Positions 1 through 22,339 of a stretch of DNA of 64,000 nt are shown one piece after another. The stretch comes from an uncultured delta proteobacterium (lineage in GTDB: Bacteria > Desulfobacterota > RBG-13-43-22). Position numbers and translations under genes: made by a program. Each line of letters starts with the position of its first letter. Within the stretch, counting starts at the first letter, position 1. Where the stretch lies: the NCBI GenBank assembly GCA_963790475.1, contig CAWBOS010000010.1:32001-96000 (forward strand), given 5' to 3'. Under the pieces are notes generated by a model. That model was not told the origin of the DNA. It did no database searches and was given only the letters and a program-made list of their open reading frames with translations.

Positions 1-2529
1 GAGTGCTACCAATGCCTGGAGGTCTGCAAGCCCGGAGCGATTGATCATACCCAGAAGGGAGAAGAGATCTCTTTGGAAGTCGGGGCCGTTATTCTGTCTC
101 CCGGATTTGAGGTCTTTGATGCCCGTCTTAAAGGGGAGTATGGTTACGGCCGCTATCCCAATGTCCTGACCAACCTGGAATTCGAGCGTATCCTTTCCGC
201 CTCCGGGCCTTATCTGGGGCATGTTCAGCGGCCTTCGGATGCTAAGGAACCTCAAAGAATAGCCTGGATCCAGTGTGTCGGTTCCCGGGATAGGTTGGTC
301 AATCAGGATTATTGCTCATCGGTCTGCTGTATGTCGGCCACCAAACAGGCCGTCATAGCCAAGGATCACCTGCCGGGTGTGGAACCGGCCATTTTTTTTA
401 TCGATATGCGGGCCCAGGGCAAAGGCTTTGAGCGCTATTATGAACGGGCTAAAAACGAGCACGGGATCCGTTATGTGCGCAGTCTGATTTCCAGGGTGGC
501 GGAAAATCCCCTGACCCACAACCTGGTCATTTCCTATATCGATGAAAACGATCATTTTCAAAACGAGGAATTCGACCTGGTCATCCTCTCCGTGGGAATG
601 AAGCCCCATTCGGATTCTAAGGCGCTTGTTGAAACTTCGAATATTCAAACCGATCGTTTCGGTTTCTGCCAACCCCCGCCTTTGAATATCGTCGGGACTT
701 CCCGACCGGGAATTTTTGTCTGTGGGGTCTTTCAGGGTCCCAAAGATATCCCCGAAACCGCCATTCAGGCCAGCGGGGCAGCCGGGGCGGCGGCGGCAAT
801 TCTCTCAGATGCGCGGGGCACTCAGGTCAGGGAATTCGTTTTTCCGGAGGAACGATTGGTTCAAGGGGAAGAGCCCAGAATAGGGGTCCTGATCTGCCAT
901 TGCGGGATTAATATCGCCGGTATCGTGGATGTGGATCAAGTCACGGAGTATGCCAAGACCCTGCCCGAAGTGGTCTATGCCGATCATTTTCTTTTTTCCT
1001 GTTCGACCGACAGTCAGGAACAACTGCAAACCGTTATTCGTGAGCATCGATTGAACCGGGTCATTGTGGCCTCCTGTTCCCCCCGGACGCATGAGGGTTT
1101 GTTTCAGAATACGCTTCGCCGGGCCGGGTTGAATAAATACCTTTTTGAAATGGCCAACATTCGCGATCAGTGCTCCTGGGTCCATCAAAATGAACCGGTT
1201 GCCGCAACAGAAAAGGCCAAAGACCTGGTGCGTATGGCCGTGGCCAGGTCCCGTCTATTAGAACCGCTGGCCGAATTTTCTTCCGAGATCGTAACCAAGG
1301 CCCTGGTTATCGGGGGTGGGGCGGCCGGGATGACTGCCGCCCTCAATTTGGGCGATCAGGGTTTTGAAACTTTTCTGGTCGAGCAAACGAATTGTTTGGG
1401 TGGGCAGGCCCTGCGCCTGTATCAAACCTTGGAAGAGCAGGGTGTGCAGGATTATATCAGCAACCTGATCCAACAAGTCACCCATCATCCGCGTATCCGA
1501 ACCTTTCTTCAAAGTCAAGTTACGGAAATAAAAGGCTCGCTGGGTAATTTTATCACCAGCATTGTTCATGAGGGGGGGAAGGTCCTGGTGAATCACGGGG
1601 TAGTCATTGTGGCCAGCGGCGGATCGGAACACCGCCCGGATGAATATTTGTTCGGATCGAATCCTTATGTGAAAACCCAACTCGATTTCCAGGAAATCCT
1701 GTTTCAGCAACCTGAAAAAATCAGGGAAGCCAAACAGGTGGTCATGATCCAATGTGTCGGGTCCCGGGAGGAAGCCCACCCTTATTGCAGCCGGGTCTGT
1801 TGTTCGACCGCAGTGGCCAATGCCTTGAAGATCAAGGAAATCAGCCCCAAGACTGAAGTCGCCATCCTGTACCGGGATATACGGACATACGGTTTGAAAG
1901 AACTTTATTACAAACAGGCCCGGGAAGCAGGGGTCCGTTTTATTCGTTTTGAACCCCCGGTCAAACCCGAAGTCATGGAAGATCAGGGGAATTTAATAGT
2001 AAAGGTTCTGGATCAGAATTTGAAAAAGCACCTTCGGCTGAAGGCTGATTTTCTGGTCCTTTCAGCGGCCATCCGCCCGGCCCCGGAAGCCAAGGCCCTG
2101 GCCAGCAGCCTGAAACTCCCCCTGGATGCCGACGGCTTTTTTCTGGAAGCCCATATAAAACTAAGACCCCTCGATTTTGCCAATGCCGGTATGTTTCTCT
2201 GCGGTTTGGGACATGGTCCTAAATCCCTGGAAGAATCCATCGCCCAGGCCAAAGGGGCCGCGGCCAGGGCGGCAACGATCCTGGCCAAAAAAGAAATTCA
2301 GGTCGGGGGCAATGTGGCCGTAGTGAATGAAGAGTTGTGCGTGGCTTGTCTGACCTGTATGCGGGTCTGCCCCTTCGGAGTCCCTGCGGTGAACGAACGT
2401 CATTTTGTCGGGATGGATCCGGCGGCCTGTCAAGGATGCGGAAACTGTGCCAGTGCCTGTCCCCAGGGGGCCATTCAGGTGGGGCATGCCCGGGGGAATC
2501 AGTATATGGCTCTTTTAGAAGCGTGTTAA
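1..2529 (+). CDS. hdrA: Heterodisulfide reductase subunit A-like polyferredoxin flavoprotein (5'-partial, frame open to window edge)
   Basis: Frame open from base 1 (ECYQCLEVC...). Two HdrA-type modules: IQCVGSRD...CSSVCC, ICHCG...CS...ASCSP...NIRDQCSWVH, GGGAAG FAD motif, second IQCVGSRE...CSRVCC, C-terminal 2x[4Fe-4S] CxxCxxCxxxCP. Confidence 0.9.
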   Translation, partial: ECYQCLEVCKPGAIDHTQKGEEISLEVGAVILSPGFEVFDARLKGEYGYGRYPNVLTNLEFERILSASGPYLGHVQRPSDAKEPQRIAWIQCVGSRDRLVNQDYCSSVCCMSATKQAVIAKDHLPGVEPAIFFIDMRAQGKGFERYYERAKNEHGIRYVRSLISRVAENPLTHNLVISYIDENDHFQNEEFDLVILSVGMKPHSDSKALVETSNIQTDRFGFCQPPPLNIVGTSRPGIFVCGVFQGPKDIPETAIQASGAAGAAAAILSDARGTQVREFVFPEERLVQGEEPRIGVLICHCGINIAGIVDVDQVTEYAKTLPEVVYADHFLFSCSTDSQEQLQTVIREHRLNRVIVASCSPRTHEGLFQNTLRRAGLNKYLFEMANIRDQCSWVHQNEPVAATEKAKDLVRMAVARSRLLEPLAEFSSEIVTKALVIGGGAAGMTAALNLGDQGFETFLVEQTNCLGGQALRLYQTLEEQGVQDYISNLIQQVTHHPRIRTFLQSQVTEIKGSLGNFITSIVHEGGKVLVNHGVVIVASGGSEHRPDEYLFGSNPYVKTQLDFQEILFQQPEKIREAKQVVMIQCVGSREEAHPYCSRVCCSTAVANALKIKEISPKTEVAILYRDIRTYGLKELYYKQAREAGVRFIRFEPPVKPEVMEDQGNLIVKVLDQNLKKHLRLKADFLVLSAAIRPAPEAKALASSLKLPLDADGFFLEAHIKLRPLDFANAGMFLCGLGHGPKSLEESIAQAKGAAARAATILAKKEIQVGGNVAVVNEELCVACLTCMRVCPFGVPAVNERHFVGMDPAACQGCGNCASACPQGAIQVGHARGNQYMALLEAC

Positions 2530-2551
2530 AAAAAGTTATTAATCGATATTT

Positions 2552-2965
2552 ATGCCCGAATCTTTCGAACCGAAAATAATCGCCCTGGTCTGTACCTACT
2601 GTACCTATACGGCAGCGGATATGGCCGGTTCCATGAGAATGCAATATCCGTCCAATGTCCGGATTGTTAAATATCTTTGTACCGGGAACATCGATATCCA
2701 ACATATCTTGAAGGGGTTTGAAAAGGGGGCTGATGCCATCCTGGTGGGCGGCTGAGAAATCGGAGACTGTCATTTCCTGGAAGGAAATCTAAGGGCCAAA
2801 GAAAGGGTTGAATATACTAAAGAGTTGTTGAAGGAAATCGGCTTGGAGCCTGACCGGCTGGAGATGTTTCATATCGGCGCCTCCGACGCCCCGGCCTGGG
2901 CCAGGGCAGTGACCGAGATGACTGAGCGGGGCAAGAAGCTGGGGCCGAACCCGTTAAAAAAATGA
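2552..2965 (+). CDS. mvhD: MvhD-type hydrogenase iron-sulfur subunit, selenoprotein (in-frame TGA 2753-2755)
   Basis: FEPKIIALVCTYC...ADMAG...CTG...GAD...VGG-U-EIGDCHFLEGN; the frame continues with MvhD-like sequence (IGLEPDRLEM...KLGPNP) to TGA at 2963-2965; U sits where MvhD has a conserved Cys. Confidence 0.92.
2772..2788 (+). promoter_or_regulatory. Putative bacterial SECIS apical hairpin of mvhD
   Basis: ATTTCCT-GGA-AGGAAAT, perfect 7-bp stem with G-containing loop, starting 16 nt after the UGA. Confidence 0.7.
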
Positions 2966-2980
2966 ATCAAATTTTTTTTG

Positions 2981-3146
2981 GACAGGATTTACCGGATCAC
3001 TTGAATTTATTTGCCTTTCCAGAAGAAAGGCAAATAGAAGATTTCCAAAATATAAACGCCTAAGTCTCCGCTGAAAACGGATTGAGGTTGCCCAGGGTGT
3101 CTTCCGGAACCTGGGCAATAAAGATGTAAATCCTGTTAATCCTGTC
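2981..3146. repeat. MITE-like palindromic intergenic element
   Basis: Terminal inverted repeats GACAGGATTTACCGGAT / ATCCTGTTAATCCTGTC (15/17 match); internal hairpins TATTTGCCTTTC..GAAAGGCAAATA and TTGCCCAGG..CCTGGGCAA. Confidence 0.65.
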
Positions 3147-3176
3147 AGATAGGAATATTTTAATTAAGGAAATTTT

Positions 3177-3860
3177 ATGATCGTTGCCAGTCGGAAGCCT
3201 TTTGAAGAGATCAAAAAGAGCCTTGCCGCTTATCAGAATATTTTGGTAGTGGGCTGTGGAACCTGTGTAGCCGTCTGCTTAGCCGGCGGGAAAAAAGAAG
3301 TGGGCCTCCTGGTCAGTCAGTTGAAGATGAGCTTCGGCTTGGAAAAGAAACAGGTACAGATCTCCGAAGAAACCCTGGAACGGCAATGTGACCGGGAGTT
3401 CCTGGAAACGATTCGAGAACCGTTGAAAGATGTCGATTGCCTTTTATCATTGGCCTGCGGGGCCGGGGTTCAGTTTTTGGCTGAGACTTATCCTGAAAAG
3501 AAAGTTTTCCCAGGTGTGAATACTTCCTTTATCGGCGTGGCCGAAGCCGCAGGATTATGGACCGAACGCTGCCGAGCCTGCGGGGATTGCGTGCTGGCCC
3601 TGACCGGCGGAATATGCCCAAGAACCCGGTGTACCAAAGGGCTTAATAATGGTCCCTGTGGAGGAATGGCGGGTGGAAAATGTGAGGTGGACCCGGAACG
3701 GCCCTGTGCCTGGGTCGCCATCTATGAACGGTTGGCCACTGAAGGAAGGCTCGACCAGATTGAAAGCATGCTTCCCCTAGCGGACTATCGCCGCCGGACA
3801 AAACCAGGGAAGGTCACTCATATGGCTTATTTGAGGAGGTACCATGCCGGGTCCAAGTAA
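3177..3860 (+). CDS. metV: MetV, methylene-THF reductase Zn/FeS subunit
   Basis: VGCGTCVAVCLAGG, ERQCD, LACGAGVQ, ERCRACGDC...GGICP.TRC.KGLNNGPCGG...GKCEV...CAW; directly upstream of metF. Confidence 0.88.
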   Translation: MIVASRKPFEEIKKSLAAYQNILVVGCGTCVAVCLAGGKKEVGLLVSQLKMSFGLEKKQVQISEETLERQCDREFLETIREPLKDVDCLLSLACGAGVQFLAETYPEKKVFPGVNTSFIGVAEAAGLWTERCRACGDCVLALTGGICPRTRCTKGLNNGPCGGMAGGKCEVDPERPCAWVAIYERLATEGRLDQIESMLPLADYRRRTKPGKVTHMAYLRRYHAGSK

Positions 3861-4722
3861 GTTGGCAAAGAATTTAGAGTCCGGTTCCTTTATCGTAACC
3901 TGTGAACTGGACCCCCCGAAGGGGACGGGCTGGTCGGTGGTTGATTCAAAAATTGCCGCCGTGAAAAATAAAATCCAGGCGGCAGTGGTTTCCGATAATC
4001 CCAAAGCCCGGCTTCTCATGGCCCCGATTGGGTTTTGTCGTTATCTGATCGAACAAGACCTCGAACCGGTTATGACTGTGACTTGCAGGGACCGAAACCG
4101 TCTGGCCTTACAATCCGACCTATTGGCGGCGGCTGGTCTAGGCATACAAAATATTCTGGCTGTAACCGGGGATTATATAACCTGGGGGGATCATCCGGAG
4201 AGCAAACCGGTTTATGATCTGGATTCCGTTCAACTGATCTGGGCCATATCCCAGATTAACCTGGGACGGGATATTTCCGGAGGAGTCATTGAAGGTCCGG
4301 CCGCTTTATTCACGGTCGGTGGGGCGGTAACGCTTACGGCCGATCTTATTTTTCCACAGATTCTAAAGTGCAGAAAAAAGCAGGAAGCCGGTGCCCATTT
4401 TTTGGTCAGCCATCCTATTTTTGATCTGGCCGGGGTTGAGGAATTTTTCAAGCAGGCCTCCGAAGTAAAAATCCCTTTGCTGGCCTCGGTCTGCTTGTTG
4501 AAGGAAGAACAGGTCCGGGAATATTTGCCGGGTAAATATCCCGGTTTATCAGTCCCTGAATCGGTGGTGGAAAGATTTAAATCTCTTAATTCAACCGAAT
4601 TCCGGTCCGGGATGATTGAGTACACAGCCAATTTGATTGAAACCATAAGGAAAGACAGGCGTTTTCGAGGGGTCCATTTGATGCTGCAAGGAGCTGAAGA
4701 ACAGATTGGGGAGTTAATTTAG
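3844..4722 (+). CDS. metF: Methylenetetrahydrofolate reductase MetF-like (divergent)
   Basis: VTCELDPPKG, TCRDRNRLALQSDLL, TGD...GDHP..KPVYDLDS, GVHLM. Confidence 0.85.
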   Translation: MPGPSKLAKNLESGSFIVTCELDPPKGTGWSVVDSKIAAVKNKIQAAVVSDNPKARLLMAPIGFCRYLIEQDLEPVMTVTCRDRNRLALQSDLLAAAGLGIQNILAVTGDYITWGDHPESKPVYDLDSVQLIWAISQINLGRDISGGVIEGPAALFTVGGAVTLTADLIFPQILKCRKKQEAGAHFLVSHPIFDLAGVEEFFKQASEVKIPLLASVCLLKEEQVREYLPGKYPGLSVPESVVERFKSLNSTEFRSGMIEYTANLIETIRKDRRFRGVHLMLQGAEEQIGELI

Positions 4723-4725
4723 ATT

Positions 4726-4841
4726 GGGGAGTTTTTAGTTCGGAGTATTTAGTTCGGAGGAAGAAGTTTTGAATTATAATGGAAATAATTTAACTCCGAA
4801 CTCAGAACTCAGAACTCAGAACTCCGAACTATTCACTCCCT
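4726..4841. repeat. Inverted pair of tandem heptamer arrays (TCGGAGT / ACTCAGA type)
   Basis: Left arm GGGGAGT TTTTAGT TCGGAGT ATTTAGT TCGGAGG; right arm ACTCCGA (ACTCAGA)x3 ACTCCGA ACTATTC ACTCCCT. Confidence 0.8.
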
Positions 4842-4880
4842 AACTCATGATTCAAAACCAAAATGATTAACTATTAATAT

Positions 4881-5930
4881 ATGAACCCGACCAACTCAAA
4901 AGTCCTCATACTCGGCGGCGGCATAGCCGGTATAACAACGTGCCCTGGCCCTGAGCCGCTTGAATATATCGGTGACCCTGATAGAAAAATCTGCCGTGTT
5001 GGGCGGTATGGTCCGGAATTTTTGCTGTAAGGCCGGCGAGGCCTGCCAGCAATGCGGCGTTTGCCTGTTAAATGATTCTTTGCAGGCCTTGAATAACGAT
5101 TCGAATATTGAAGTCCTTTTACAAACCGAAGTGATTGACCTGACCTTGAAGCCGACGAAATTTCTCTATACCTATAGCCGCCCTGGAGGGGGTGGCGAGG
5201 GGAGGGCCAAGGCCCTTCTTCTGGCAACCGGTTTTACCCCCTTCAGGGCTGAAGACAAACCCCAGTATCGGTATGGAATACTTCCGAATGTAGTGACCGG
5301 TTTGGATCTGGAAAGACAATTTCAGGAACACCGGTATGGTTTTCAGGCCTTCCGATCATGCCCTTCCCGCCTCTGTGGCCTTTATCCAATGTGTCGGCAG
5401 CAGGGATCTTCACTTGAATCACCCCTTTTGTTCTCAAGTCTGTTGTGCCTATGCCCTGCGGATGGCCAATCTCATCAAACACAAAAATCCACAAACCGAA
5501 GTAACAATTTTTTATATGGATATCCAGACCTTCGGCAAAGATTTTTCCCTTTTTATGGAACGTAGCAAAAAACAAATCCGTTTTATCCGGGCCATTCCCG
5601 GTGAAATTCAAAAGGCGGAAAATGATCAGGTTCTGTTGACCTTCCAGGACGAGTGACGGGTCTCCCAGCCGGAAGCAGGCCTTTGATCTGGCCGTACTTT
5701 CCGTCGGTATAATGCCCGGAGCGGATCATGAGTTTTTCAAAGAAAAACTGGGATTGCATTTAAATGCCGACGGTTTTTTGGAAAGAGGAAATGAAGCCCT
5801 TTCTTCTGATAATGGTATTTTCCTGGCCGGAACCGTCCGGGGTCCAAAAGGCATTGCCCAGAGTATTACCGAAGCCTACCGGACGGCGGAAGAAATTGCG
5901 GCTTATTTAAAAACAAGGCCCAGAGGATGA
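4881..5930 (+). CDS. hdrA: HdrA-like FAD oxidoreductase, N-terminal-half type (three +1 frameshifts, probably assembly errors)
   Basis: Stitched frames: KVLILGGGIAG, IEKSAVLGG..CCK...CQQCGVC, LLLATGF..Y.YG.LPNVVTGLDLE, IQCVGSRD..FCSQVCC, FDLAVLSVG, GIFLAGTVRGPKGIAQSI. Confidence 0.75.
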
Positions 5931-7591
5931 TCCCTCAAGAAGAATTCAGGAAAATACCCAGGGTGCTTATTTGGGGCAAGGGCCTTACGGCCGGGGAAAC
6001 GGCTTCCCGTCTTAAATCGTTAGGCTATGAAGTCATAACGGTGAATCCGGATAACCAAATCCAGGTGCTTGACATTAAAGGGTTTTGCCGGAGACTTCCA
6101 GGTGTCCCTTAGGCAAACCATCTCTCCCTTTGGACAAAGAGGAGAAGAAGGAGAATTTGGAAAGAAGGTGGACTGAGAATGTCGGGGCGATTGTATTTGC
6201 GCCGGAGCTGGTTTCCGAGGGAAATTATTCCTCCTATCGGTTAACCCCTTCTTCACAGATTATTACTTTAGAAGAACTGACTGCGATTCTATTTCCGGTT
6301 TCTCAAAATACTCTGATTTCCCCTCCCTCTTTAACCAGGGAGAATGAGAGTGGGGGTGAAAAGGGAAAAGGAGAAATTGAGCGTCTTAAGTCTGATTCTT
6401 ATGTCGCCTTTCTGGTAGGGCTAAGTAGTGAAGGCAATGTCCCGGACATGGAAAAGGCCTTGTCGGCGGCCCTATTGATTCGAGAGAAATATCAATTTCA
6501 AGTCTCCATGTTTTGCCGCCAGGTCAAGGTGGCCGGAGAAGGGATGGAACGACTCTATCAAGCCTGCCGGGATGAGGGGGTTTTGTTTTTCAAGTTTGAT
6601 CAAGAAGGTCCGGCATTGTTAAGAACGGGGGATGAGGTTGTGCTTCAATTTGAGGACCCCGTTTTGAAGCTGCCCTTTGAATTGACCCCTGATCTTCTGG
6701 TAGTTGATTCCCGGCATTCGCTGCCTTCGGAGGTCCGGGAAACTGCTTTGTCGTCCGGAATAGGGATGGATAAAAGCTGTTTTCTTCAGCCGGCCAATGT
6801 TCATCTTCTACCCCAGGCCTCTCAGCGGGAAGGTATATTTATCGCCGGTCCGGGTAAAGGCCCGATGCTTCCCCAAGCAGGTATGGAGGAGGCCGGGGCC
6901 GCGGCCCTTTCGGTCCATCATTTTTTCCAAGGCCGGACTTCCGAACCGATGAACCAGGAGATTACCGTGGATAAAGGGCTTTGCACCCTTTGTCTGACCT
7001 GTCTGCGGTATTGTCCCCACCAGGCTATCGGCTGGACCCACCGGATTTTTATTCACCCCCTGGCCTGCCGGCGCTGCGGTATCTGTGCCAGTGAATGCCC
7101 AATGGACGCCATCCAGATTGACGGTTATTCGGATGAGGAGGTCGAGGACCAAACTTGAGATCATTCGGGAAAGATGGGATCAGAGCGGAATCCAGTCAAC
7201 CCAGGATAGTCATCTTTGGATGCCAACGTTCGGCCGGGGTGGCCTGGGAGGAAGTTCAAGGTTCAAGGTTCAAGGCTCACAAGTTCAAAGTTCAAAGTGA
7301 TGTAGAATTTATTTCATTGCCCTGTGCCGGAAAGCTGGATCCGGATCATTTGTTGAGAGCCTTGACCATGGGCGCTGAGGGGGTAATGGTTTTGGCCTGT
7401 CCTGAAGAAAACTGCCGCTCCGTACATGGAAACTACCTATGCCCGGGAGCGTATCCGGGAGGCCCGAAATTATATTGAAGAGGCCGGAGTTCAATCCGGA
7501 AAGAATCCGTTTTGAACATCTTTCGAGCAATATGGAATGGTATTTAATCGAAGTAATTGATAATTTCTTAAAGCAATTAGCTGTCACTTAG
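5927..7591 (+). CDS. HdrA C-terminal-half / ferredoxin / MvhD-like fusion (about six +1 frameshifts)
   Basis: ERLYQACRDEGVLF, GIFIAGPGKGP, CTLCLTCLRYCP / CRRCGICASECP, then MvhD-like RIVIFGCQRSA, LPCAGKLD, VLACPEENCRSVHGN, PERIRFE to TAG 7589-7591. Confidence 0.72.
7254..7298 (+). repeat. Tandem heptamer GTTCAAG/GTTCAAA array inside a coding region
   Basis: GTTCAAG x3, GCTCACAA, GTTCAAA x2; read in frame as VQGSRFKAHKFKVQS. Confidence 0.75.
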
Positions 7592-7671
7592 AAGTGCTTC
7601 GGGCAATTGGCATTATTGTAAGGGCCGGTTTCGCAATCTGCCGAACATAGGGCATCTAGAGACCTTCGAAT

Positions 7672-8141
7672 ATGGATCCGCATCGATCTCAAAAAATTAG
7701 ATCCCGATTTCAAACATCGGGTGGCCCGGGAATTAGGCGGGGAACAGATAAAAAAATGTTTTTCCTGCGGGGTCTGTTCGGCCCGTTGTCCGATTGAAAA
7801 AATCGAACCGGAATATAATCCGCAGAAGGATTATCCGTATGATCCTGCTGGGGATGGAGGAAGAACTGCTCAAAGAAGAATTTCTCTGGCACTGTTCAAC
7901 CTGTTATACCTGCCAGGAAAGCTGTCCCCAGCAGGTCGATTTTACGGAAGTCGTTTTTGCCTTGCGCAATATGGCCGTTCGCAAGGGACTGGCTCCTCCG
8001 GGCATGGGGGCAGCCCGAAACCTGCTTGGTCAACAAGGGCGGATGTATGAGGTGGGAGAATTTGAAAATGAAAAACGGAAGGAAATGGGATTGCCGGAGA
8101 TTAAAGGGAATAGCAAAGATATTCAAAAGATCTTAAAATAA
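7672..8141 (+). CDS. hdrC: Heterodisulfide reductase subunit C (two +1 frameshifts)
   Basis: CFSCGVCSARCP and LWHCSTCYTCQESCPQQV in consecutive frames; hdrB downstream. Confidence 0.82.
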
Positions 8142-8197
8142 AGTTCAAAGAATGATAGATTTTATTATGATACCAACTACGATGATAGGCCTGAAGA

Positions 8198-8225
8198 TGT
8201 AGCACAGCCGCCCTCGGCTGTGTCC
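8198..8225 (+). repeat. REP (GTAG + palindrome), left flank of RAYT
   Basis: TGTAG-CACAGCCG-CCCT-CGGCTGTG-TCC. Confidence 0.85.
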
Positions 8226-8779
8226 TCTATATCCTTGGCAAAACCAAGCAAAGGATTTTCCCGACGTAACTTGCCGCACCTGCAAGCTGAAGAAAGAACG
8301 TTTTTTGTCACTTTTGCAACTTATAGACGATGGCACCTTCCCGAGTCGGTGAGAGAGATCATAATAAAGCACTGTCTCCATGATCATAAAACCAAATTGC
8401 AGGTCCATGGTGTTGTTGTTATGCCGGATCATGTTCACATGGTTTTTACACCTCTGAAGGATAGAATCAGGTAATCCCTTTGGCTTGCCTGAAATTATGA
8501 ATGGCATTAAAGGGGCTTCAGCCCACAGTATTAACAAGTTACTCAAGCGACGAGGTCATGTCTGGCAGGATGAATCTTTTGATCACATTTTGCGGTCAGA
8601 AGAAAAAATGATTAGTAAGGTCGAATATATCTGCCAAAATCCGGTGCGAAAGGGTCTGGTAAAAGAAGTCAGATGATTACCCCTGGCTCTGGCGGGAATG
8701 GGTGGAAGGGAAAAATGGACACAGCCGGGGGCGGCTGTGCTACAAAACGATAAATACAGGAATTTCTAAAATACTATGA
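8220..8779 (+). mobile_element. REP-associated tyrosine (Y1/HUH) transposase, RAYT (two +1 frameshifts)
   Basis: RRNLPHL, FFVTFAT, HUH motif VVMPDHVHM, VWQDESFDHILR, catalytic YICQNPVRKGLV, DYPW; flanked by inverted REPs; stop overlaps the hdrB start (ATGA). Confidence 0.85.
8717..8744 (-). repeat. REP, right flank of RAYT (inverted copy)
   Basis: Reverse complement matches 8198-8225 at 27 of 28 positions. Confidence 0.85.
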
Positions 8780-9657
8780 AATATGCCTTCTTTTTAGGAT
8801 GTACGGTTCCGGTTCGCAATCTGAACTATGAGCTATCCGCCCGGTGGGTGGCCCGGGAATTGGGATTGGAACTGGTTGATCTCGAAGATTTTCAATGCTG
8901 TGGATTTCCCTTAAAATCGATCAATAATTTTGATTCCCTGGTTGTCGCCGCCCGCAACCTGGCTTTGGCTGAACAGGCCGATCTGCCGGTTTGCACCTTA
9001 TGCAGCGCCTGTGGCGGCTTTTTAAGCGAGGCCAATCACCTGCTTCAACACCGCAGCGATTTAAAAACTCAGGTCAATGACCGATTGAAGGATTCCGGGT
9101 TGGAATATAAGGGAACAACCCAGGTCAAACATTTTATTCGTATCCTCTATGAAGAGATAGGAATTGAAAGAATACGGGAAAAAATCATTCGTCCGCTTTC
9201 CGGGTTTACCTTCGCCCCTCACTATGGCTGTCATTATATCAAACCGGCCCGGACCGCCGGCGGGATTGATCCGGTGGAGAATCCTAAATCATTGAGCGAA
9301 TTGATTGAAGTCACCGGGGCTAAGGCCCTCCATTATGAAACCCTGCTGGATTGCTGCGGGGGGAGTGTCTTGGGGGTCAAAGAGGATCTGGCCAATACCC
9401 TGGCCGGGAACAAACTCTCCGAAGTGGACCGGTTGGGAGGAAACGGGCTGGTCTTGATCTGCCCCTTCTGTAATGTAATGTTTGAAGGACAGCAAAAAAA
9501 GATAGAAAAAAAACTTGAACAAAAATTGAAGGTGCCTGTTCTGTACTACCCCCAGCTTTTGGGTTTGGCCCTGGGGGCCTCCCCGGAAGCCTTGGGATTT
9601 AAATTGAATCGAATCAAGGATAAAGAATTTTTAAACCGTTTTGAGGGGAGGGTCTGA
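8776..9657 (+). CDS. hdrB: Heterodisulfide reductase subunit B
   Basis: YAFFLGC, CCGFP, LCSAC, HYGCH, CCGG, ICPFC, VPVLYYPQLLGLA: two CCG domains. Confidence 0.92.
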   Translation: MKYAFFLGCTVPVRNLNYELSARWVARELGLELVDLEDFQCCGFPLKSINNFDSLVVAARNLALAEQADLPVCTLCSACGGFLSEANHLLQHRSDLKTQVNDRLKDSGLEYKGTTQVKHFIRILYEEIGIERIREKIIRPLSGFTFAPHYGCHYIKPARTAGGIDPVENPKSLSELIEVTGAKALHYETLLDCCGGSVLGVKEDLANTLAGNKLSEVDRLGGNGLVLICPFCNVMFEGQQKKIEKKLEQKLKVPVLYYPQLLGLALGASPEALGFKLNRIKDKEFLNRFEGRV

Positions 9658-9659
9658 TT

Positions 9660-10091
9660 ATGGAAATGGAAGGTTACTTTTTCCCGGATGATTTGTGGTA
9701 TGATAAAAATCATTTTTGGGCGCGGATCGAGGGCGATCACTTGGTGATGGGTACCACCGACTTCGCTCAAAGGCTGGCCGGCGATATCGGCTATGTGGAA
9801 CTGCCGGAAGAAGGGCGGAAGGTCCAGCAGGGCAAGCCCTTCGGTTCGATTGAATCCGGGAAATGGGTGGGGAGGATCTATGCGGTATTTTCCGGAGAGG
9901 TGACCGCAGTCAATGAAGCCCTGGAAGATCAACCGGAACTCATCAATGCCTCTCCCTATGACGAGGGCTGGATCTGTAAGATCGCTCCCGAGAATCTGGA
10001 AGGGGAAAAACAAAATCTGATGACCGCCGCGGATCTTAAACCGTTTATAGAGGCCGAGATCCTCCGGGTGAAAGAGTTGATGAACAAATAA
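9660..10091 (+). CDS. gcvH: Glycine cleavage H-like lipoyl-carrier protein (ESGKW type, LbpA-like)
   Basis: PDDLWY..HFWAR, GTTDFAQ..AGDI.YVELP, lipoyl-Lys in GSIESGKWVG, GEV.AVN..L...PELIN.SPY..GW. Confidence 0.85.
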   Translation: MEMEGYFFPDDLWYDKNHFWARIEGDHLVMGTTDFAQRLAGDIGYVELPEEGRKVQQGKPFGSIESGKWVGRIYAVFSGEVTAVNEALEDQPELINASPYDEGWICKIAPENLEGEKQNLMTAADLKPFIEAEILRVKELMNK

Positions 10092-10096
10092 AAGCA

Positions 10097-10204
10097 GGTA
10101 CACGGTAGAAGGTATAAGGTTTACGGTATAAGGTTCAAAACCAAAGGGGAAAAACTTCTCCCTAAAATCTTACACCTTAAACCTCGCACCTCAAACCTTA
10201 AACC
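10097..10204. repeat. Inverted pair of tandem heptamer arrays (GGTATAA / TTAAACC type)
   Basis: GGTACAC GGTAGAA GGTATAA GGTTTAC GGTATAA GGTTCAA ... TTACACC TTAAACC TCGCACC TCAAACC TTAAACC. Confidence 0.75.
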
Positions 10205-10227
10205 ATTTTGAGGGGAAGGAGTCTTAC

Positions 10228-12811
10228 ATGGGGTATGTTGAAGAATTAAAAACCATCGTCGGTGGAGAAAATGTCCATACCGGAATGATTGATCGAATCG
10301 GTTTTTCCCGGGACATGTCGGTTCATGAAGGTCTTCCTGATGTGATTGTTTTTGCCCAGACCTCGGATCAGGTCAGCCGGATTGTCAAAATTGCTGCCGC
10401 CCAAAACATCCCGGTTGTGCGCCCGTGGGGCAGGCACCAGTGTGACCGGAGCGGTGTTGCCGGCCAAGGGAGGCATCCTGCTGGATCTTTCCCGGATGAA
10501 TCAAGTCCTGGAACTCAATAAAAACGACGGTTATGTTATTGTCGAACCGGGGATAATCTGCAATGCCTTGAACGCCCGGTTGGAACCGACCCATTTTTTC
10601 CCACCCGATCCGGGCAGCGCCCCGGCCTGCACCATCGGCGGTATGATCGCCTGTAATGCCAGCGGGGTTCGGGCGGTCAAGTACGGAACCACCAGGGATT
10701 ATGTCAAGGGTCTGGAAGTGGTCTTGGCCGACGGCCAAGTGATCCATACCGGGACGCTGGCCCCTAAAAGTTCGGCCGGTTATGATCTGACCCGTCTATT
10801 TTGCACCTCTGAAGGGACCCTGGGGATAATCACCGCGGCCACCTTAAAGATTCTGCCCAAACCGGCCTATCTGGCCTTTGCCAAATTGCTCTTCCCTTCG
10901 GTCGATCAAGCCGGAGAAGCGGTGGTTAAGATATTGACCTCAGGCATCCCCTTGTCCGCCTGTGAGATCCTGGACGAGGTTTCCATCGGAGTGGTCAAAC
11001 AGGCCATGAAACTGGAAATCCCTCCCGAGGTCAAATGCCTTCTTTTTGTCGAGATCGACGGACACCGTCAAGCGATTTTGGATCAGATGACGCAAATTGA
11101 TGCCATCTGCAAAGAATTCGGGGGACTGGGGAATGAATGGTCCGATGACCCGGCCAAACGCCTGATCATGTGGTCGGCCAGGCAGGGACTGGTTCCTTCC
11201 CTGTCGCGAGTCAAGCCGGGTTACCGGCAGATTCCGATTGTCGAAGATTTTGGGGTGCCCATCAGCCAAATAAAGTCCATCATCCATGAAATTCAGAAAA
11301 TCGGGCGGGAACATGACTCTCCTATCGCCACCTTCGGCCATATCGGGGACGGAAATCTCCATGCCGTGCTGATTATGGATGTGCGTAAATCCAAGGAATG
11401 GGAGACCCTGCGCCAGATCGGCCGGGATTTTCTGGCCCTGACCTTGAAATATAAAGGGACCCTGACCGCCGAACATGGACTGGGGATGGCCAAATCGCCA
11501 TTTATCAAAGAAGAGCTGGGGGCATCCTTAGAAGTCATGAAGACCATAAAAAAGGCTTTAGATCCCCAAAATATCCTCAATCCGGGAAAACTGGGATTTG
11601 AGGACAGCATCAGGGATATTTATGAAAAGTCGGCTTATGCCCCTTTGATTGAAAAACCGGAAGCCTTTAAAAGTTTTGGGGAAAAGATTGACCATGAAAT
11701 TATGGCCTGCATCTTGTGCGGGTTCTGCCGGGCGGGATGCCCCACCTATGCCCAAACCGGCCTGGAAACCATGAATGCCCGGGGCAGGGTCCTGTTGGCC
11801 TTCGATTTGATGAGCGGCCGTCTGGAGCCCTCCGAAGAGATGGCCAAGCGACTGTATCAGTGCACCACTTGTCTCAATTGTAAATATACCTGTCCTTCCC
11901 GGGTAGAGGTGGCCGATGTGATGCAGGCGGCCCGTAAAAGATTGGCCGACAGCGGATTCCTGCCTCCGGTCTTTCAAAGCAGCAGTAAAAGCATCGCCCA
12001 ATACGGCAATCCTTTCGGCGAACCCAGGGAGAAGCGAACCGATGTCTTTCCTGCCGGATTTAAAACAGGTGGTCAGGGGGCCGAGGTCCTGCTCTTTGCC
12101 GGATGTGTGGCTTCCTATCAGGACATCAACATGATTCCCAACCTGATGACCATATTGGACAAGGCCGGTATCTCCTATACGACTCTGGGACAGGAGGAGG
12201 ATTGCTGCGGATATTTGAGCTATTTGATCGGGGCCGAAGAAGATTTTCAAACTTGTGTAAAAAACAACACCAAAAAATTTACCGACCTGGGGGTCAAGGA
12301 AATCGTCACCAGTTGCCCGGGGTGTTTTCGAACTCTTTCCAAATTGTATCCCCAATTTGGCGGAAATGCGGGGCTAAAGGTCCATCATGTGGTCACTTAT
12401 CTGAATGACCTGATGAGCCAGGGGAAGATCTCCTTAAAAGAGAAGGGATCATTAACTGTGGCCTACCATGACCCCTGCGATCTGGGGCGTCATATGCAGG
12501 TTTTTGAAGAGCCCAGGAATCTCCTGAAACAAATCCCCGGAGTGCAGCTAAATGAATTTAAGATGAATCGCCTTTTGGCCAAATGCTGCGGCAGCGGGGG
12601 AGGGGTCAAAGGTTTTGACAACCAGCTCAGTCAGGACATCGCCTACGACCGGGTCCTCCAGGCCCTGGAGGTTGGGGCCGAAGTAATCGTTTCCGCTTGC
12701 CCCTCCTGCAAGAGCAACCTGACCCAGGGGGCGGCCCGTCTGCGGAAGGAGAAAAAAGGAAAGATCAAGGTCAAAGACATTACTGAAATGATTGCTTCGG
12801 CCTTGGCCTAA
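10228..12811 (+). CDS. FAD-linked 2-hydroxyacid oxidoreductase (GlcD/D-LDH-like) fused to 4Fe-4S and CCG (GlcF/HdrD-like) domains; one +1 frameshift near 10420
   Basis: RGAGTSVTG, PPDPGS..CTIGG..ACNASG..VKYG, SEGTLGII, GHIGDGNLH, AEHGLG, LDPQNILNPGK; CILCGFCRAGCP, CTTCLNCKYTCP; CCG, YHDPCDLGR, CCGSGGG, SACPSC. Confidence 0.88.
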
Positions 12812-12886
12812 TAAAACAAGAATCCAGAATCCAGAGTCAGAATTCAGAAAGAAACCTTTATCAAAAAGGTATGAAGTCTTGTTGAG

Positions 12887-13066
12887 ATGAACTCGCAAAA
12901 AGTTGCCGAAATCCGTATTAGTCATTCCGGTCCCGCATCAAGTGCCGGATAGACTCCAGCCGGAATCCAGTGATTTTAAGTAGTCTTTGATCTCCTGGAC
13001 CCCGGTTTTTGCCCCCGGATTGAAACTTTCCGGGGCAGGCTTGGTGACGACTTTTTGCGAATCCAT
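12887..13066. repeat. Composite REP-like palindromic element (GTCATTCCGG...CCGGAATCCAG family)
   Basis: Core 12921-13050 with expanded loops; outer inverted repeat TCGCAAAAAGT / ACTTTTTGCGA. Confidence 0.7.
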
Positions 13067-13145
13067 TTTATTGATATTTTTAACTCATGCCTCTTATTGA
13101 GAATGAATTGACTTAAAAATCCTTGAGGAAAAGGAGAATATAATT

Positions 13146-14723
13146 ATGGCCAAAAGTAATTGGATGCACATGGGAACGGTACTCAAGATGAATGCCGTCA
13201 ACTTTCCGGACAAGCTTGGATGGCAGGACAAATCCAAAGAATTCACTTTTAAACAATGGAACGATCGCTCCTGTCGTTTGGCCAACGGTTTTAAAAAAAT
13301 GGGAGTTGGACATAGAGACCGTTTTGCCGTTCTGGCCTATAATCGGGGAGAATGGATGGATATCTATGCCGGGGCGGCCAAGGGGGGCCAGGTCATCGTT
13401 CCCCTGATGTTCAGGCTGGCCGGGCCGGACATCGAATTTATTGTCAATCATTCGGAATGCAAGGGAATGATCGTTGAGGCGCCTTTTGTTGATCTGGTCA
13501 ACGGGATCAAAGACAAACTGCAGGTTCCCAAAAATGCCTTTGTTTTTTTAGGGGAAGGCCCTGTGCCCAATGGATATATCGGCTACGAGGAATGGCTGGC
13601 CGGTTCCTCTCCTGAAGAACCGGATTTTGTGGTGGATGCCGCCGACCCCTGGACCTTTATGTACACTTCCGGCACCACCGGCCGTCCTAAAGGGGTGGTC
13701 CGCTCCCACGAAAGTTACATGGCCCAATATTACTTAGACATCATCAATATGGGTGTGCGCACTACAGATAAGGTGATGCTGGTCATGCCCATGTGCCACG
13801 TTAATTCCATTTTTTACTCTTTCCCCTACACCTTACTCACCGCCCCGGTCTTTGTCTACAACATGGTCTCCTTCGACCCCGAGGATCTCCTGAAGACTAT
13901 AGCCGAATATAAGATCACTTTTACCTCTCTGGTGCCCACCCACTACATCATGATCCTGTCCCTGCCGACTGAGATCAAGAATAGCATTGATGTCTCTTCC
14001 ATCCGGCAGCTTTTGATTTCTTCGGCCCCGGCCCGCAAGGACCTCAAGCTGGCCATTATGGATTACTTCAAGAATGCCGAACTGTGGGAGGCCTACGGGT
14101 CCACGGAAGGCGGGCTGGTGACCCTGCTCCGGCCGGAAGATCAATTTAAGAAATTAGGGTCTATCGGTCGTGAAATTTTCGGGACCGACCAAATCCGCAT
14201 TTTGAATGAAAAGCGTCAGCCGGTCCCGGAGGGAGAGGTAGGAGAGCTTTTTTACCGGACCCCCATGCTCTTTACCGAATACTGGAAAGAGCCGGAAAAA
14301 ACCAAAGAGGCCTTTGACAACGGCTGGTCTTCGGCCGGCGATATGGTCCGACGCGATGAAGACGGCTATTATGTCCTGGTGGACCGCAAGGCCAATATGA
14401 TTATCACCGGCGGGGAGAACGTCTATCCTTCCGAGGTGGAAAATGTGATCGGTAGTCATCCGGCGGTTAAAGATGTGGCTGTCATCGGGGTGCCGGATAA
14501 AAAATGGGGCGAGGCCATCAAGGCTATTGTTATCCTGCACGAAGGATATAAGGGAACCGCGGCCCTGGCCAAGGAAATCATTGATTACTGCCAGGGGAAA
14601 ATCGCCGCTTTTAAAAAACCCAAAACCATCGATTTTATCACCGACGCCGAAATGCCGCGAACCGGAACGGGGAAGATCCTGCACCGAATCTTGAGGGAAA
14701 AATACGGGAAGTGGAGTGATTAG
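13146..14723 (+). CDS. Acyl-CoA synthetase (AMP-forming, long-chain fatty acid-CoA ligase family)
   Basis: MYTSGTTGRPKGV, YGSTE, SAGDM, DRK..MIITGGENVYPSEVE, PRTGTGKI. Confidence 0.92.
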   Translation: MAKSNWMHMGTVLKMNAVNFPDKLGWQDKSKEFTFKQWNDRSCRLANGFKKMGVGHRDRFAVLAYNRGEWMDIYAGAAKGGQVIVPLMFRLAGPDIEFIVNHSECKGMIVEAPFVDLVNGIKDKLQVPKNAFVFLGEGPVPNGYIGYEEWLAGSSPEEPDFVVDAADPWTFMYTSGTTGRPKGVVRSHESYMAQYYLDIINMGVRTTDKVMLVMPMCHVNSIFYSFPYTLLTAPVFVYNMVSFDPEDLLKTIAEYKITFTSLVPTHYIMILSLPTEIKNSIDVSSIRQLLISSAPARKDLKLAIMDYFKNAELWEAYGSTEGGLVTLLRPEDQFKKLGSIGREIFGTDQIRILNEKRQPVPEGEVGELFYRTPMLFTEYWKEPEKTKEAFDNGWSSAGDMVRRDEDGYYVLVDRKANMIITGGENVYPSEVENVIGSHPAVKDVAVIGVPDKKWGEAIKAIVILHEGYKGTAALAKEIIDYCQGKIAAFKKPKTIDFITDAEMPRTGTGKILHRILREKYGKWSD

Positions 14724-14822
14724 GGATGACAAGTTCGTAAAAGATTCCTTTGCCTGGATTTAGATTTCTTACGTAGCTATCGGCGGTGATAGTCTGGGAA
14801 AAAATCGGCGAGTCGTGTTTGG

Positions 14823-14899
14823 GTCATTCCGGCGAAAGCCGGAATCCAGGGTTATCAATGCTTATTAACCTCCTGGACCCCGGTTTTCACCGGGGCGAC
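14823..14899. repeat. REP doublet
   Basis: GTCATTCCGGCGAAAGCCGGAATCCAG...CTGGACCCCGGTTTTCACCGGGGCGAC; related copies at 12921, 35274, 63818. Confidence 0.85.
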
Positions 14900-14951
14900 G
14901 ATCTGATTGGGAATTCATCAGAGGGGATACAAATAATTCAGAGGAGGGATT

Positions 14952-19596: not shown

Positions 19597-19669
19597 TGGC
19601 CCGTGGAGAAGCAAAAGGGGACAGCCTACTTTTTGAGCTATGCAGACAATATTTTCGAGATAGCGTGAC

Positions 19670-19717
19670 TACCAACCAGCGACTCGACCCCTCAAGCGGG
19701 TCAGCCGCGCGTTGGGC
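19670..19717 (+). mobile_element. attC-like recombination site
   Basis: TACCAAC-5nt-ACT(C)GACCC...GGGTCAGC-GTTGGGC; L boxes pair with one extra-helical base; short (48 nt). Confidence 0.65.
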
Positions 19718-19751
19718 ATCTAAACCAAAGAAAAACTCGTGAGGCGTAAGG

Positions 19752-21317: not shown

Positions 21318-22339
21318 TACTTGCTGTTGCAGGTTCAGGCAAGACCACACACATCGTGAATAGTTTAGGCAGCCTCAACCCAGGTGTAAGATCACTTGTT
21401 ATAACGTATACCAGAAACAACCTCAGCAATTTGAGGACCAAGATAATTCGCAAATTCGGATACTTTCCAGAGAACATATCATTGTACGAGTATTTTGCGT
21501 TCTTGTATGGTTTCTGCTTCAGGCCGTTCCTGCTTAGGAATACAAGAGCAAAAGGTATCAACTGGGAGGCGCCGCCAGCTTGGACATTGCGTAAAGAAAG
21601 AACCAGCAAGGAATACTACTTCGACAAGTACAGTAAACTATACCACAACAGAATAGCCAAGTACCTGGAATTTAAAGGTGTCTTGGATCTCGTCAATCAG
21701 CGGATAGAGAGGTACTATGATAATCTTCTTGTTGATGAGGTGCAGGATTTCGGGGGACACGATTTCAACTTTCTTCGGACCATCGTGCAATCAAAAGTGA
21801 CCATACTTTTTGTCGGGGATTTCTACCAACACACATTCGACACAAGCAGGGATGGAAACGTTAACAAGAATCTGTACAGTGACCTGAATGTCTATAAAGG
21901 GCTTCTGAGAAAGATGGGTCTGGCGGTAGATTCGGACACATTGAGCAAGAGCTATAGATGTAGTCCAACGATTTGCCGCTTCATCTCAAAGAATTTGGGG
22001 ATAGATATGGAATCTCACCGAGACGACGAGACGGCAATGCACGCTCTTGCCACAAAAGGTGACGCCGGTGTGGTGCTTAAATGCAACAACACGGTAAAAC
22101 TCTTCTACAGAGAACATTACAAATACGGTTGTTACTCGAAAAACTGGGGCGACTCGAAGGGTGCAGATCACTATTCGGATGTTTGCGTTGTCCTAAATAA
22201 GGAAACATTTCAAAAGTTCCAAAAGAAGCGGCTAAGCGAGTTGAAGCCGCAAACGAGGAACAAGCTTTACGTTGCGTGCACGCGGGCAAGGAACAATCTC
22301 TACTTAATCCCAGAGACTTTCTACCAAGGAAGCGGATGA
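21302..22339 (+). CDS. gajB: Gabija protein GajB (short UvrD-like helicase)
   Basis: GTG start overlapping gajA; AVAGSGKTT, LVDEVQD, VGDFYQ, SYRCS, LYVACTRAR. Confidence 0.85.
   Translation: MDKRVILAVAGSGKTTHIVNSLGSLNPGVRSLVITYTRNNLSNLRTKIIRKFGYFPENISLYEYFAFLYGFCFRPFLLRNTRAKGINWEAPPAWTLRKERTSKEYYFDKYSKLYHNRIAKYLEFKGVLDLVNQRIERYYDNLLVDEVQDFGGHDFNFLRTIVQSKVTILFVGDFYQHTFDTSRDGNVNKNLYSDLNVYKGLLRKMGLAVDSDTLSKSYRCSPTICRFISKNLGIDMESHRDDETAMHALATKGDAGVVLKCNNTVKLFYREHYKYGCYSKNWGDSKGADHYSDVCVVLNKETFQKFQKKRLSELKPQTRNKLYVACTRARNNLYLIPETFYQGSG

Follow-up and report, generated by a model that had tools for sequence, protein, structure and literature searches.

A KW-type GcvH-like protein encoded beside heterodisulfide reductase-like and dehydrogenase–CCG enzymes in a Desulfobacterota genome: a candidate lipoyl partner

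Which thiol or disulfide do the heterodisulfide reductase-like (Hdr) enzymes of anaerobic bacteria act upon? The genes for HdrABC, HdrD and other CCG proteins are among the commonest energy-metabolism genes of these organisms, and the thiol/disulfide substrate of a CCG protein is known only for methanogens (CoM-S-S-CoB), sulfate reducers (DsrC, for DsrK) and sulfur oxidizers (LbpA). The question is raised anew by a stretch of 64,000 nucleotides from an uncultured delta proteobacterium (Desulfobacterota, lineage RBG-13-43-22; GenBank assembly GCA_963790475.1, contig CAWBOS010000010.1, positions 32,001 to 96,000 of the forward strand), which we call the window and whose numbering is used below unless a contig is named. 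Here a gene for a protein resembling GcvH, the glycine cleavage system's H protein, lies in a cluster of hdr, mvhD, metV and metF genes, between hdrB and the gene for a fused dehydrogenase with CCG domains. A first, sequence-only reading of the window had suggested that lipoamide bound to this H protein is the thiol/disulfide partner of HdrB and of the fused CCG domain, and that it links lactate oxidation to the reduction of methylene-tetrahydrofolate (methylene-THF). Following up this suggestion, we lean towards the view that the H protein is a dedicated protein-bound lipoate and serves as the dithiol/disulfide substrate of the CCG modules that flank it. As the protein is small, easily expressed and found beside CCG enzymes in two phyla, it makes the substrate question assayable.

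The H protein and its neighbors across genomes

Eleven co-oriented genes on the + strand fill the first 14.7 kb of the window, and their Pfam matches bear out the gene names and orientation given in the sequence-only reading. The H protein is encoded at 9660-10091 (+ strand; Pfam GCV_H, E 1.5e-39); its ATG at 9660 follows the hdrB stop codon, which ends at 9657, after a gap of 2 nt, as had been read. The predicted product aligns over its full length to the solved H proteins 1onl (E 5.8e-30) and 3a8i, with Lys68, in the sequence ESGKWVGRIYA, placed on the lipoyl-lysine. It also passes the NCBIfam gcvH equivalog TIGR00527, with 127.8 bits against a cut-off of 115.85, and annotation pipelines will therefore name it GcvH. 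The whole genome, which is rated 100% complete, gave no match to GcvP/GDC-P or to GcvT/GCV_T, so that the lack of gcvP and gcvT noted for the window extends genome-wide, while homologs of Lpd, also missing from the window, are encoded only outside it. With no glycine cleavage system in the genome, a protein that passes the gcvH threshold amounts to a systematic misannotation, and one that can mislead the reconstruction of reductive-glycine or glycine-cleavage capacity.

Of the six GCV_H matches in the genome, one is weak and five are H-type genes, complete or partial, including a duplicate on contig C9 (see below). An ortholog of the Hdr-linked H protein (80-100% identical) is present in 15 of 21 genomes of the class, nine of which have no gcvP; gcvP itself occurs in 7 of the 21, always beside another H paralog that is 36-44% identical to the window protein. 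In a maximum-likelihood tree of 57 of 91 H proteins, for which Prevotella-type loci were thinned to one in three and a fused paralog was left out, the 18 Hdr-linked sequences and one relative lacking the lysine are split from all others by a branch of length 0.67 with support of 100/99. Across that branch from the Hdr-linked set lies L104, the H protein that goes with gcvP in the same class, and the separation from ordinary GcvH on which the sequence-only reading depended is thus found. The motif E65-S-G-K-W-V-G-R72 is invariant in the alignment of the 18 clade sequences, which contains no invariant cysteine. Judged from these comparisons of sequence, the gene at 9660-10091 encodes a member of a distinct H-protein subfamily, termed KW-type here, and is not a component of glycine cleavage.

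Genes for lipoylation are encoded in the genome, which has lipA, a gene upstream of it that we take by eye to be lipB from its position and a sequence motif, and an lplA-like gene located by tblastn. A PF03099 search of the genome matched only BirA; because both lipB and the lplA-like gene escaped it, this result is no evidence for absent ligases. With lipB-lipA and the lplA-like gene present, lipoylation of Lys68 appears possible.

Other GcvH-like paralogs were seen in the course of these searches. The second (L002, G000:C15:549330-549767; relatives L103, L105-L107, L112, L113, L115 and L116) adjoins tolQ/tolR and has lost the lipoyl-lysine, reading ES-Q/R/H-N/D/G instead of ES-x-K; in several relatives a gene for a Sir2-type deacylase, identified by eye from its translation, comes next. 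L005 (G000:C12:441771-442694) encodes 307 aa, with a GCV_H domain at 135-244 behind a Cys-rich N-terminal region that has no Pfam match, and has homologs of ~310-330 aa across the class. A third H paralog (L102, L110 and L111; 47-51% identical) is paired with a gene resembling dihydrolipoamide dehydrogenase, and in L111 stands behind FeS and molybdopterin oxidoreductase-like genes; all of these neighbors were read by eye from translated open reading frames.

A synteny scan with one genome per species returned 17 loci whose H proteins are 59-92% identical to that of the window; the next ones, at 48% or below, are canonical GcvH. The 13 close loci (80-92% identical) all have the 11-gene order of the window, hdrL-mvhD-metV-metF-hdrA2-hdrA3/mvhD-hdrC-hdrB-gcvH-glcD/CCG-ligase, and with it the clustering of metV and metF with mvhD, hdrA, hdrB and hdrC that constitutes the gene set of an Hdr-type methylenetetrahydrofolate reductase (MTHFR). 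The four distant loci (59-62% identity) are rearranged and keep the H gene with the GlcD/CCG fusion, with HdrCB or with both. They read ligase(-), gcvH-hdrC-hdrB-hdrL-mvhD-flxCBA-like-glcD/CCG (L021), gcvH-lplA-glcD/CCG (L022, whose lipoate ligase gene scores 114 bits on LplA-B_cat), gcvH-glcD/CCG (L020) and gcvH-nuoE-nuoF (L023). Conservation of synteny, the check proposed with the sequence-only reading, is therefore observed, exactly in close relatives and in part in distant ones. The same 15 of the 21 class genomes have orthologs of gcvH, glcD/CCG, hdrB and metF, and the same six lack them, one of the six retaining a broken glcD/CCG remnant; because these genes are adjacent, their joint presence and absence shows a block gained or lost as one and not genes that vary together independently.

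The association extends well beyond the class. In a sample of 401 genomes of the phylum, searched with the L021 protein at E <= 1e-38, 66 genomes carry a clade member; ten rows of the window's own class were then dropped, and 21 query proteins were mapped by tblastn within 6 kb on either side of all 67 other places. The KW motif is present at 67 of the 67. An HdrB or HdrD-like CCG gene lies within 6 kb at 57 and within 400 bp at 43 of them; within 6 kb, a GlcD-like gene is found at 33, an LplA-like gene at 25, HdrA at 17, metV at 3 and GcvT or GcvPA at none of the 67. Among 63 canonical GcvH loci taken as controls (mostly Prevotella, other phyla), none has a CCG gene and 60 have GcvT/PA, and as a background 3.7% of the positions in the window's genome are 6 kb or less from a CCG place, of which it has 21. 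In a Bacillota sample, also of 401 genomes and searched with a clade profile at E <= 1e-38, 38 genomes matched; all 39 places were taken, giving 44 H-protein rows. A CCG gene is within 6 kb for 25 of 28 KWVG rows and for all five SGKWAGK rows, and for none of the 11 canonical-like rows (K then V/T/A-A/V-S). In five Bacillota loci the order is hdrA2-hdrA3/mvhD-metV-metF-gcvH-hdrC-hdrB-hdrL-mvhD; these nine components are those of the window differently arranged, and the GlcD fusion is missing. Finally, a profile search of 1.84 billion cluster representatives yielded 63 proteins at E <= 1e-30, with KW[VAIL]G in 52 of the best 150; the top match, P0001 (1391 aa), naturally fuses three GCV_H domains, all Lys-less, to FAD_binding_4, FAD-oxidase_C, Fer4_8 and two CCG domains. 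From gene content and order alike, the pairing of H protein and CCG enzyme is real, spans many families and two phyla, and is specific to the distinct H clade.

These neighborhoods also bear on the possibility that the H protein is a carrier that exchanges a one-carbon (C1) unit, in aminomethyl or methylene form, with tetrahydrofolate as part of a non-canonical glycine/C1 route tied to MetVF. The H gene shares one cluster with metVF here and is directly 3' of metF in the five Bacillota loci, its product clears the gcvH equivalog cut-off, and gcvH occurs with lpdA in the Wood–Ljungdahl clusters of acetogens, where its role is described as unclear in the accessible portions of two reports (PMC5039349, PMC8515935). 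Such a route is nevertheless hard to reconcile with a genome that has neither GcvT nor GcvP, with the absence of GcvT/PA from the surroundings of all 67 phylum places, with MetV within 6 kb of only 3 of these places as opposed to 57 for CCG genes, and with a clade separate from the H proteins linked to glycine cleavage; we regard it as very improbable. Two simpler candidates were dropped: an ordinary GcvH placed beside hdr genes by chance, against which the synteny counts, and a reductive glycine pathway, as the genome has no gcvP or gcvT.

CCG modules and a candidate carrier

The two enzymes that flank the H gene each contain two CCG motifs (Pfam CCG x2), corresponding to 10 Cys and two non-cubane [4Fe-4S] clusters. 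HdrB, encoded at 8776-9657 (+ strand) with both motifs complete, scores 256.9 bits on NCBIfam CoB_CoM_SS_B, below the cut-off of 345, and its Cys 9, 41, 42, 73, 76, 79, 152, 193, 194, 229 and 232 are invariant in 13 sequences. The fusion gene at 10228-12811 (+ strand; 860 aa in the intact C9 copy) joins a D-2-hydroxyacid (D-lactate-type) dehydrogenase to an HdrD/TfrB-like FeS and double CCG part (Pfam FAD_binding_4, FAD-oxidase_C, Fer4_8 and 2xCCG). The closest solved structures to its N-terminal half are mammalian D-lactate dehydrogenase LDHD (8jdc, E 4.7e-75) and LctD (7qh2), a part of the bifurcating lactate dehydrogenase. Both the GHxGDGNxH and the EHG motif are kept, GHIGDGNLH and EHGLG aligning with GHVGDGNFH and EHGIG, and with them the His/His/Glu-His catalytic and metal-binding residues. 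The C-terminal half is most like TfrB, the thiol-oxidizing subunit of thiol:fumarate reductase, with 177.7 bits over residues 410-781, which is below the NCBIfam cut-off. A complex prediction for HdrB and the H protein (alignments of 13 and 18 rows, respectively) gave a score of 0.00 in two runs and counts neither for nor against a contact.

We propose that the dithiolane/dithiol of the carrier is the 'heterodisulfide' of this cluster, on which the CCG modules encoded to either side of the carrier gene would act. The first of these modules would be HdrCB, wired through HdrA2, HdrA3-MvhD, HdrL and a selenocysteine-containing MvhD to MetVF and NAD(P)H; the second would be the HdrD/TfrB-like C-terminal half of the D-lactate-dehydrogenase-like flavoenzyme. 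The carrier would thereby take the part that CoM-S-S-CoB plays in methanogens, or LbpA in the sulfur-oxidizing Hdr-like (sHdr) system, and shuttle two electrons between 2-hydroxyacid/2-oxoacid chemistry and the flavin-based Hdr/MetVF machinery. We observe the gene content, a synteny both conserved and rearranged, the separate clade, the independence from gcvP and gcvT, and the presence of lipoylation genes; that Lys68 is lipoylated, that the carrier meets HdrB and the CCG module, and which way the electrons flow we infer.

For the organic substrate, the genes that accompany the cluster offer a pointer. Genes for a 2-hydroxyacyl-CoA-dehydratase-type protein (HGD-D) and its activase lie between the fusion and the acyl-CoA ligase gene in 7 of the 11 loci that show both flanks, HGD-D and BcrAD_BadFG being seen in L016 and L011, and this genome carries such a pair elsewhere (C15:85426-87608). 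Together with the CoA ligase, these genes suggest a 2-hydroxyacid on its way to or from a 2-hydroxyacyl-CoA dehydratase route.

The energetics favor one direction of transfer. The potentials are about -290 mV for lipoamide, -190 mV for D-lactate/pyruvate and -200 mV for methylene-/methyl-THF. Because the lipoamide potential is the more negative, lactate oxidation without coupling cannot reduce lipoate, and by these standard potentials electron transfer from the dihydrolipoyl group to a 2-oxoacid or to methylene-THF is more likely than transfer from lactate to lipoate. Of the link drawn in the sequence-only reading, the conserved, clade-specific association of the lipoyl protein with HdrB and the CCG fusion has held, and the direction from lactate to lipoate has become doubtful.

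Several points weigh against a lipoyl substrate. Lipoamide is an awkward choice, being too negative for the high-potential acceptor in an NADH-driven bifurcation, unlike CoM-S-S-CoB. In the available part of one report, the MetFV of C. ljungdahlii was not driven by NADH, dihydrolipoamide dehydrogenase and free lipoamide, with or without ferredoxin; this enzyme is without Hdr, and a lipoyl H protein was not part of the assay as given there (PMC8515935). Within the clade, relatives without the lysine exist, namely L109 (K->D) and the three P0001 domains, and the fold must therefore have at least one lipoate-independent role. No CCG gene lies within 6 kb at 10 of the 67 phylum places, and the survey counts overstate the number of independent events because related genomes are not independent. 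Five genes of the window's own copy are frameshifted, among them hdrA2, hdrA3-mvhD, hdrC and the glcD/CCG fusion, as discussed below. Nor is every CCG module a thiol/disulfide site: on the model of the quinol-linked SdhE anchor (quinol:fumarate reductase) HdrB reaches 165.5 bits as well, and the fusion matches the YdiJ, GlcF and LdhH models, with all of its scores below the respective cut-offs. Lastly, the genome encodes DsrAB together with DsrC, the published bacterial candidate for Hdr-type disulfide chemistry (DsrA at 615 bits, DsrC at 129 bits).

These HdrB and fusion scores and the Dsr genes, joined by the Lys-less clade members and the structural role that they suggest, lend themselves to a different account. 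In it the CCG modules use another partner, which could be the trisulfide/disulfide of DsrC or, after the manner of Dld-II, YdiJ and SdhE-type enzymes, menaquinone, and the H protein is an accessory in the form of a lipoyl-relay, redox buffer, regulator or docking subunit.

The gene for DsrC, however, lies elsewhere, on contig C12, whereas a CCG gene is kept near the H gene at 57 of the 67 phylum places and for 25 of the 28 KWVG rows of Bacillota. A lipoate ligase gene stands between the H gene and the fusion in L022, LplA-like genes are near 25 of the 67 phylum places, and all 18 aligned sequences have the lipoyl-lysine motif unchanged. We judge this account unlikely, though far from negligible, and continue to favor a lipoyl substrate for the flanking CCG modules. 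A bolder extension, to which we give rather less credence, is that the lipoate of KW-type H proteins may be the general dithiol/disulfide substrate of HdrB and HdrD-type CCG enzymes outside the methanogens, including the second substrate of the Hdr-type MTHFR and the acceptor or donor of GlcD-HdrD. If this were true, lipoyl protein would rank with ferredoxin and NAD as a soluble electron carrier widespread among anaerobes.

The cluster as it stands in the window

Gene identities were assigned by Pfam and NCBIfam searches, with domain matches taken on the intact copies of contig C9 where the window copy is frameshifted. All genes of the cluster are on the + strand. The cluster begins with hdrL, of which the 3' 842 codons are at 1-2529 in an intact frame (Pfam Pyr_redox_2, Fer4 and FAD-binding families). 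Its start is at G000:C10:30099, 1901 nt upstream of the window, and the full-length product is a large HdrA-like protein of 1476 aa with an added Fer4_20 and Pyr_redox_2 part that forms a GltD-like NAD(P)H module by Pfam. The mvhD gene at 2552-2965 (Pfam MvhD/FlpD, E 3.3e-46) contains a TGA codon at 2753-2755 that had been read as selenocysteine. This codon is in frame in 10 of 10 close orthologs, a Cys occupies the same site in the distant L021, and a tRNA-Sec gene is present on contig C6; on this conservation and the tRNA, the selenocysteine assignment is well supported. In the search for a selenocysteine insertion sequence (SECIS), the 60 nt 3' of the TGA fold no more stably than shuffled sequences (z 0.98).

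The two subunits of the reductase follow, metV at 3177-3860 (Pfam DUF5981, MTHFR C-terminal, E 8.7e-36) and a divergent metF at 3844-4722 (Pfam MTHFR, E 1.8e-17). The genome as a whole has seven MetF and six MetV-homologous places, the window metF among the seven, and those on C13 (~143-150 kb), C15 (~540-543 kb) and C12 (~1336-1347 kb) are near HdrA or HdrB homologs; such multiplicity of MetVF-Hdr modules in one genome is unusual. Downstream lie hdrA2 at 4881-5930, for a small HdrA-like FAD protein of 348 aa in the intact copy (identified by frame analysis, comparison with C9 and Pfam Pyr_redox_2 on the intact copy), and the hdrA3-mvhD fusion at 5927-7591, for 562 aa in the intact copy with a 2x[4Fe-4S] ferredoxin part and MvhD (Pfam Fer4 and FlpD on the C9 copy and window pieces). 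The division of hdrA into these two genes, as first read, is a real arrangement that is kept in related loci. Next comes hdrC at 7672-8141, whose product is 155 aa long when intact and in its C9 version matches Pfam Fer4_8/Fer4_17. Between hdrC and hdrB lies a 626-bp remnant of an IS200/RAYT-like transposase at 8142-8767, itself frameshifted and absent from C9. Its pieces have no Pfam match at 1e-4; the one match, to Y1_Tnp at E 0.0083, is weak and below the cut-off, and an HUH-like 'HVH' motif was read by eye. The ends of the remnant (~8198-8221 and ~8720-8745) recur in many contigs of public sequencing runs with other inserts between them.

Beyond the H gene and the fusion, the cluster closes with a gene for an AMP-forming acyl-CoA ligase at 13146-14723 (Pfam AMP-binding, E 8e-71). 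Its best NCBIfam match is a long-chain-fatty-acid--CoA ligase subfamily, at 427.8 bits below the cut-off of 476; the gene is linked to the cluster in close and distant relatives and is beside the GcvH-like gene in L020-L023. The spacer ahead of it holds a REP-like dispersed repeat at 12886-13066 (no strand assigned; dozens of blastn copies genome-wide), which is the site where 7 of the 11 related loci carry the HGD-D and activase genes.

The frames of several of these genes are interrupted in the window. There are three single-base insertions in hdrA2 (4942, 5326 and 5651), frameshifts at 6086, 6128, 7144, 7183, 7280, 7433 and 7495 in hdrA3-mvhD, insertions at 7680 and 7819 in hdrC, and one at 10419 in the glcD part of the fusion. 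The point of reference is C9, a 7959-bp contig of the same assembly that covers 4624-8141 at 94.5% and 8768-13142 at 98% identity. Compared with C9, the window shows 14 additional single letters, of which 13 fall inside genes, and lacks no single letter within those genes. C9 lacks the 626-bp insertion and has hdrA2, hdrA3-mvhD, hdrC and the fusion intact, and carries a 1-nt insertion of its own in gcvH.

Taken at face value, these changes would make the window locus a decaying, non-functional copy in which the frameshifts and transposase remnant are real; the extra letters cluster in 4942-7819 and at 10419 while the genes to either side are unbroken, and the 626-bp insertion adds to the damage. 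Decay is less easily squared with the fact that every change is an insertion and that the sister contig has its own in gcvH. Among public metagenome runs, which represent related populations (best word share 0.23) rather than the source sample, contigs of four runs omit one letter within 0-4 nt of six of the window insertion sites, and one contig joins 8141 directly to 8768. The genes are uninterrupted in close relatives, with split matches in some other metagenome-derived relatives, e.g. L008 and L012; these, and the 9.68% contamination at which the genome is rated, suggest consensus errors. Since C9, the related loci and other public contigs do not have them, the frameshifts appear private to this assembly, and since the window and C9 carry complementary single-base insertions (14 versus 1), consensus errors in a bin of mixed strains are their most likely cause. 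We hold genuine decay to be improbable.

Some features of the surroundings were recorded. Further REP/MITE-like short dispersed repeats with dozens of genomic copies sit in spacers of the cluster at 2967-3151 and 14787-14924, in addition to 12886-13066. Upstream of hdrL, the region G000:C10:22827-29947 contains etfBA-like genes, which run on the opposite strand, and a putative Liv-type ABC transporter of five genes, both recognized by eye in translated open reading frames. A defense island at 17758-22339 comprises a DUF262-type protein (PADLOC Orf5/HEC-06, 301.6 bits) followed by Gabija GajA (374.7 bits) and GajB (177.5 bits).

Comparison with known systems

The window H protein shares its fold and the position of the lipoyl-lysine with GcvH (1onl, 3a8i). 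It differs in the context of that lysine, SGKWVGR and not SVKAASD, and in a C-terminal extension of ~10 residues; the neighbors of KW-type genes are those of CCG enzymes and never gcvT or gcvP, and no P or T protein is encoded in the genome. The fusion has the same domain order (FAD_binding_4, FAD-oxidase_C, Fer4_8, 2xCCG) as the D-2-hydroxyglutarate dehydrogenase YdiJ and as Dld-II, the GlcD-FeS-CCG fusion dehydrogenase of Shewanella. Quinone is the presumed acceptor of proteobacterial enzymes of this build, and CoM-SH and CoB-SH are the substrates of TfrB, whereas here the gene for a lipoyl protein is the constant neighbor. In the FlxABCD-HdrABC system of Desulfovibrio the disulfide substrate of HdrB is unsettled and DsrC has been proposed; L021, where the H gene heads an array of hdrCB-hdrL-mvhD-flxCBA-like genes, resembles that system, while in the window MetVF replaces the Flx NADH module.

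The gene set metV, metF, mvhD, hdrA, hdrB and hdrC is that of the Hdr-type MTHFR, HdrCBA-MvhD-MetVF, of Moorella thermoacetica and Sporomusa ovata, for which the accessible part of PMC9430772 gives the HdrB substrate and the second electron acceptor as not known. The window adds a second HdrA set, the 1476-aa HdrL with its NAD(P)H module, selenocysteine in MvhD, the H protein, the GlcD-HdrD fusion and the acyl-CoA ligase. A literature search found no paper on a GcvH-like partner of HdrCB, HdrD or GlcD-CCG in anaerobes, although subscription journals and closed supplements, such as those with LbpA phylogenies, may hold one; PMC10102598 mentions neither lipoate, glycine cleavage nor heterodisulfide.

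The closest counterpart is the sHdr-LbpA system of Hyphomicrobium denitrificans, Thioalkalivibrio and Aquifex, as set out in the available portions of PMC6067878 and PMC10332631. There, too, the gene for a GcvH-like single-domain lipoyl protein is beside HdrB-, HdrC- and HdrA-like genes and independent of glycine cleavage, and the lipoyl protein LbpA is essential for the Hdr-like sulfur-oxidizing complex (PMC6067878, in the same portion). The carrier is proposed in these texts to present sulfur/disulfide chemistry to non-cubane FeS sites, and lipoate ligase genes are often adjacent, a trait shared with KW-type loci. The differences lie first in the partners, which are shdrC1B1AHC2B2 and sulfur transferases in the sHdr systems, and here are HdrCB with HdrA/HdrL, MvhD(Sec), MetVF and the GlcD-HdrD fusion in an anaerobe that carries dsr genes; the cluster proteins searched have no Pfam match to a sulfur-transferase family, and there is one hdrC-hdrB pair only. 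The presence of lipB-lipA in this genome, lipB being assigned by eye, is a further difference. The carriers themselves also differ: a preprint (10.64898/2026.10.01.755906), in its accessible part, describes two conserved cysteines in LbpA, which the KW-type carrier lacks, having instead a KW motif of its own. This comparison is with LbpA as described, our tree being built without LbpA sequences, and no solved structure named LbpA was among the matches of the window H protein. A lipoyl protein as partner of an Hdr-like complex is thus known from sHdr-LbpA; here the association is with HdrCB/MetVF and GlcD-HdrD partners in anaerobes, and the carrier is of the KW-type subfamily. The H protein and the Hdr-like complex of the window are, on our best reading of the comparison, a variant of the sHdr-LbpA principle in which the partners, the organisms and the carrier subfamily differ.

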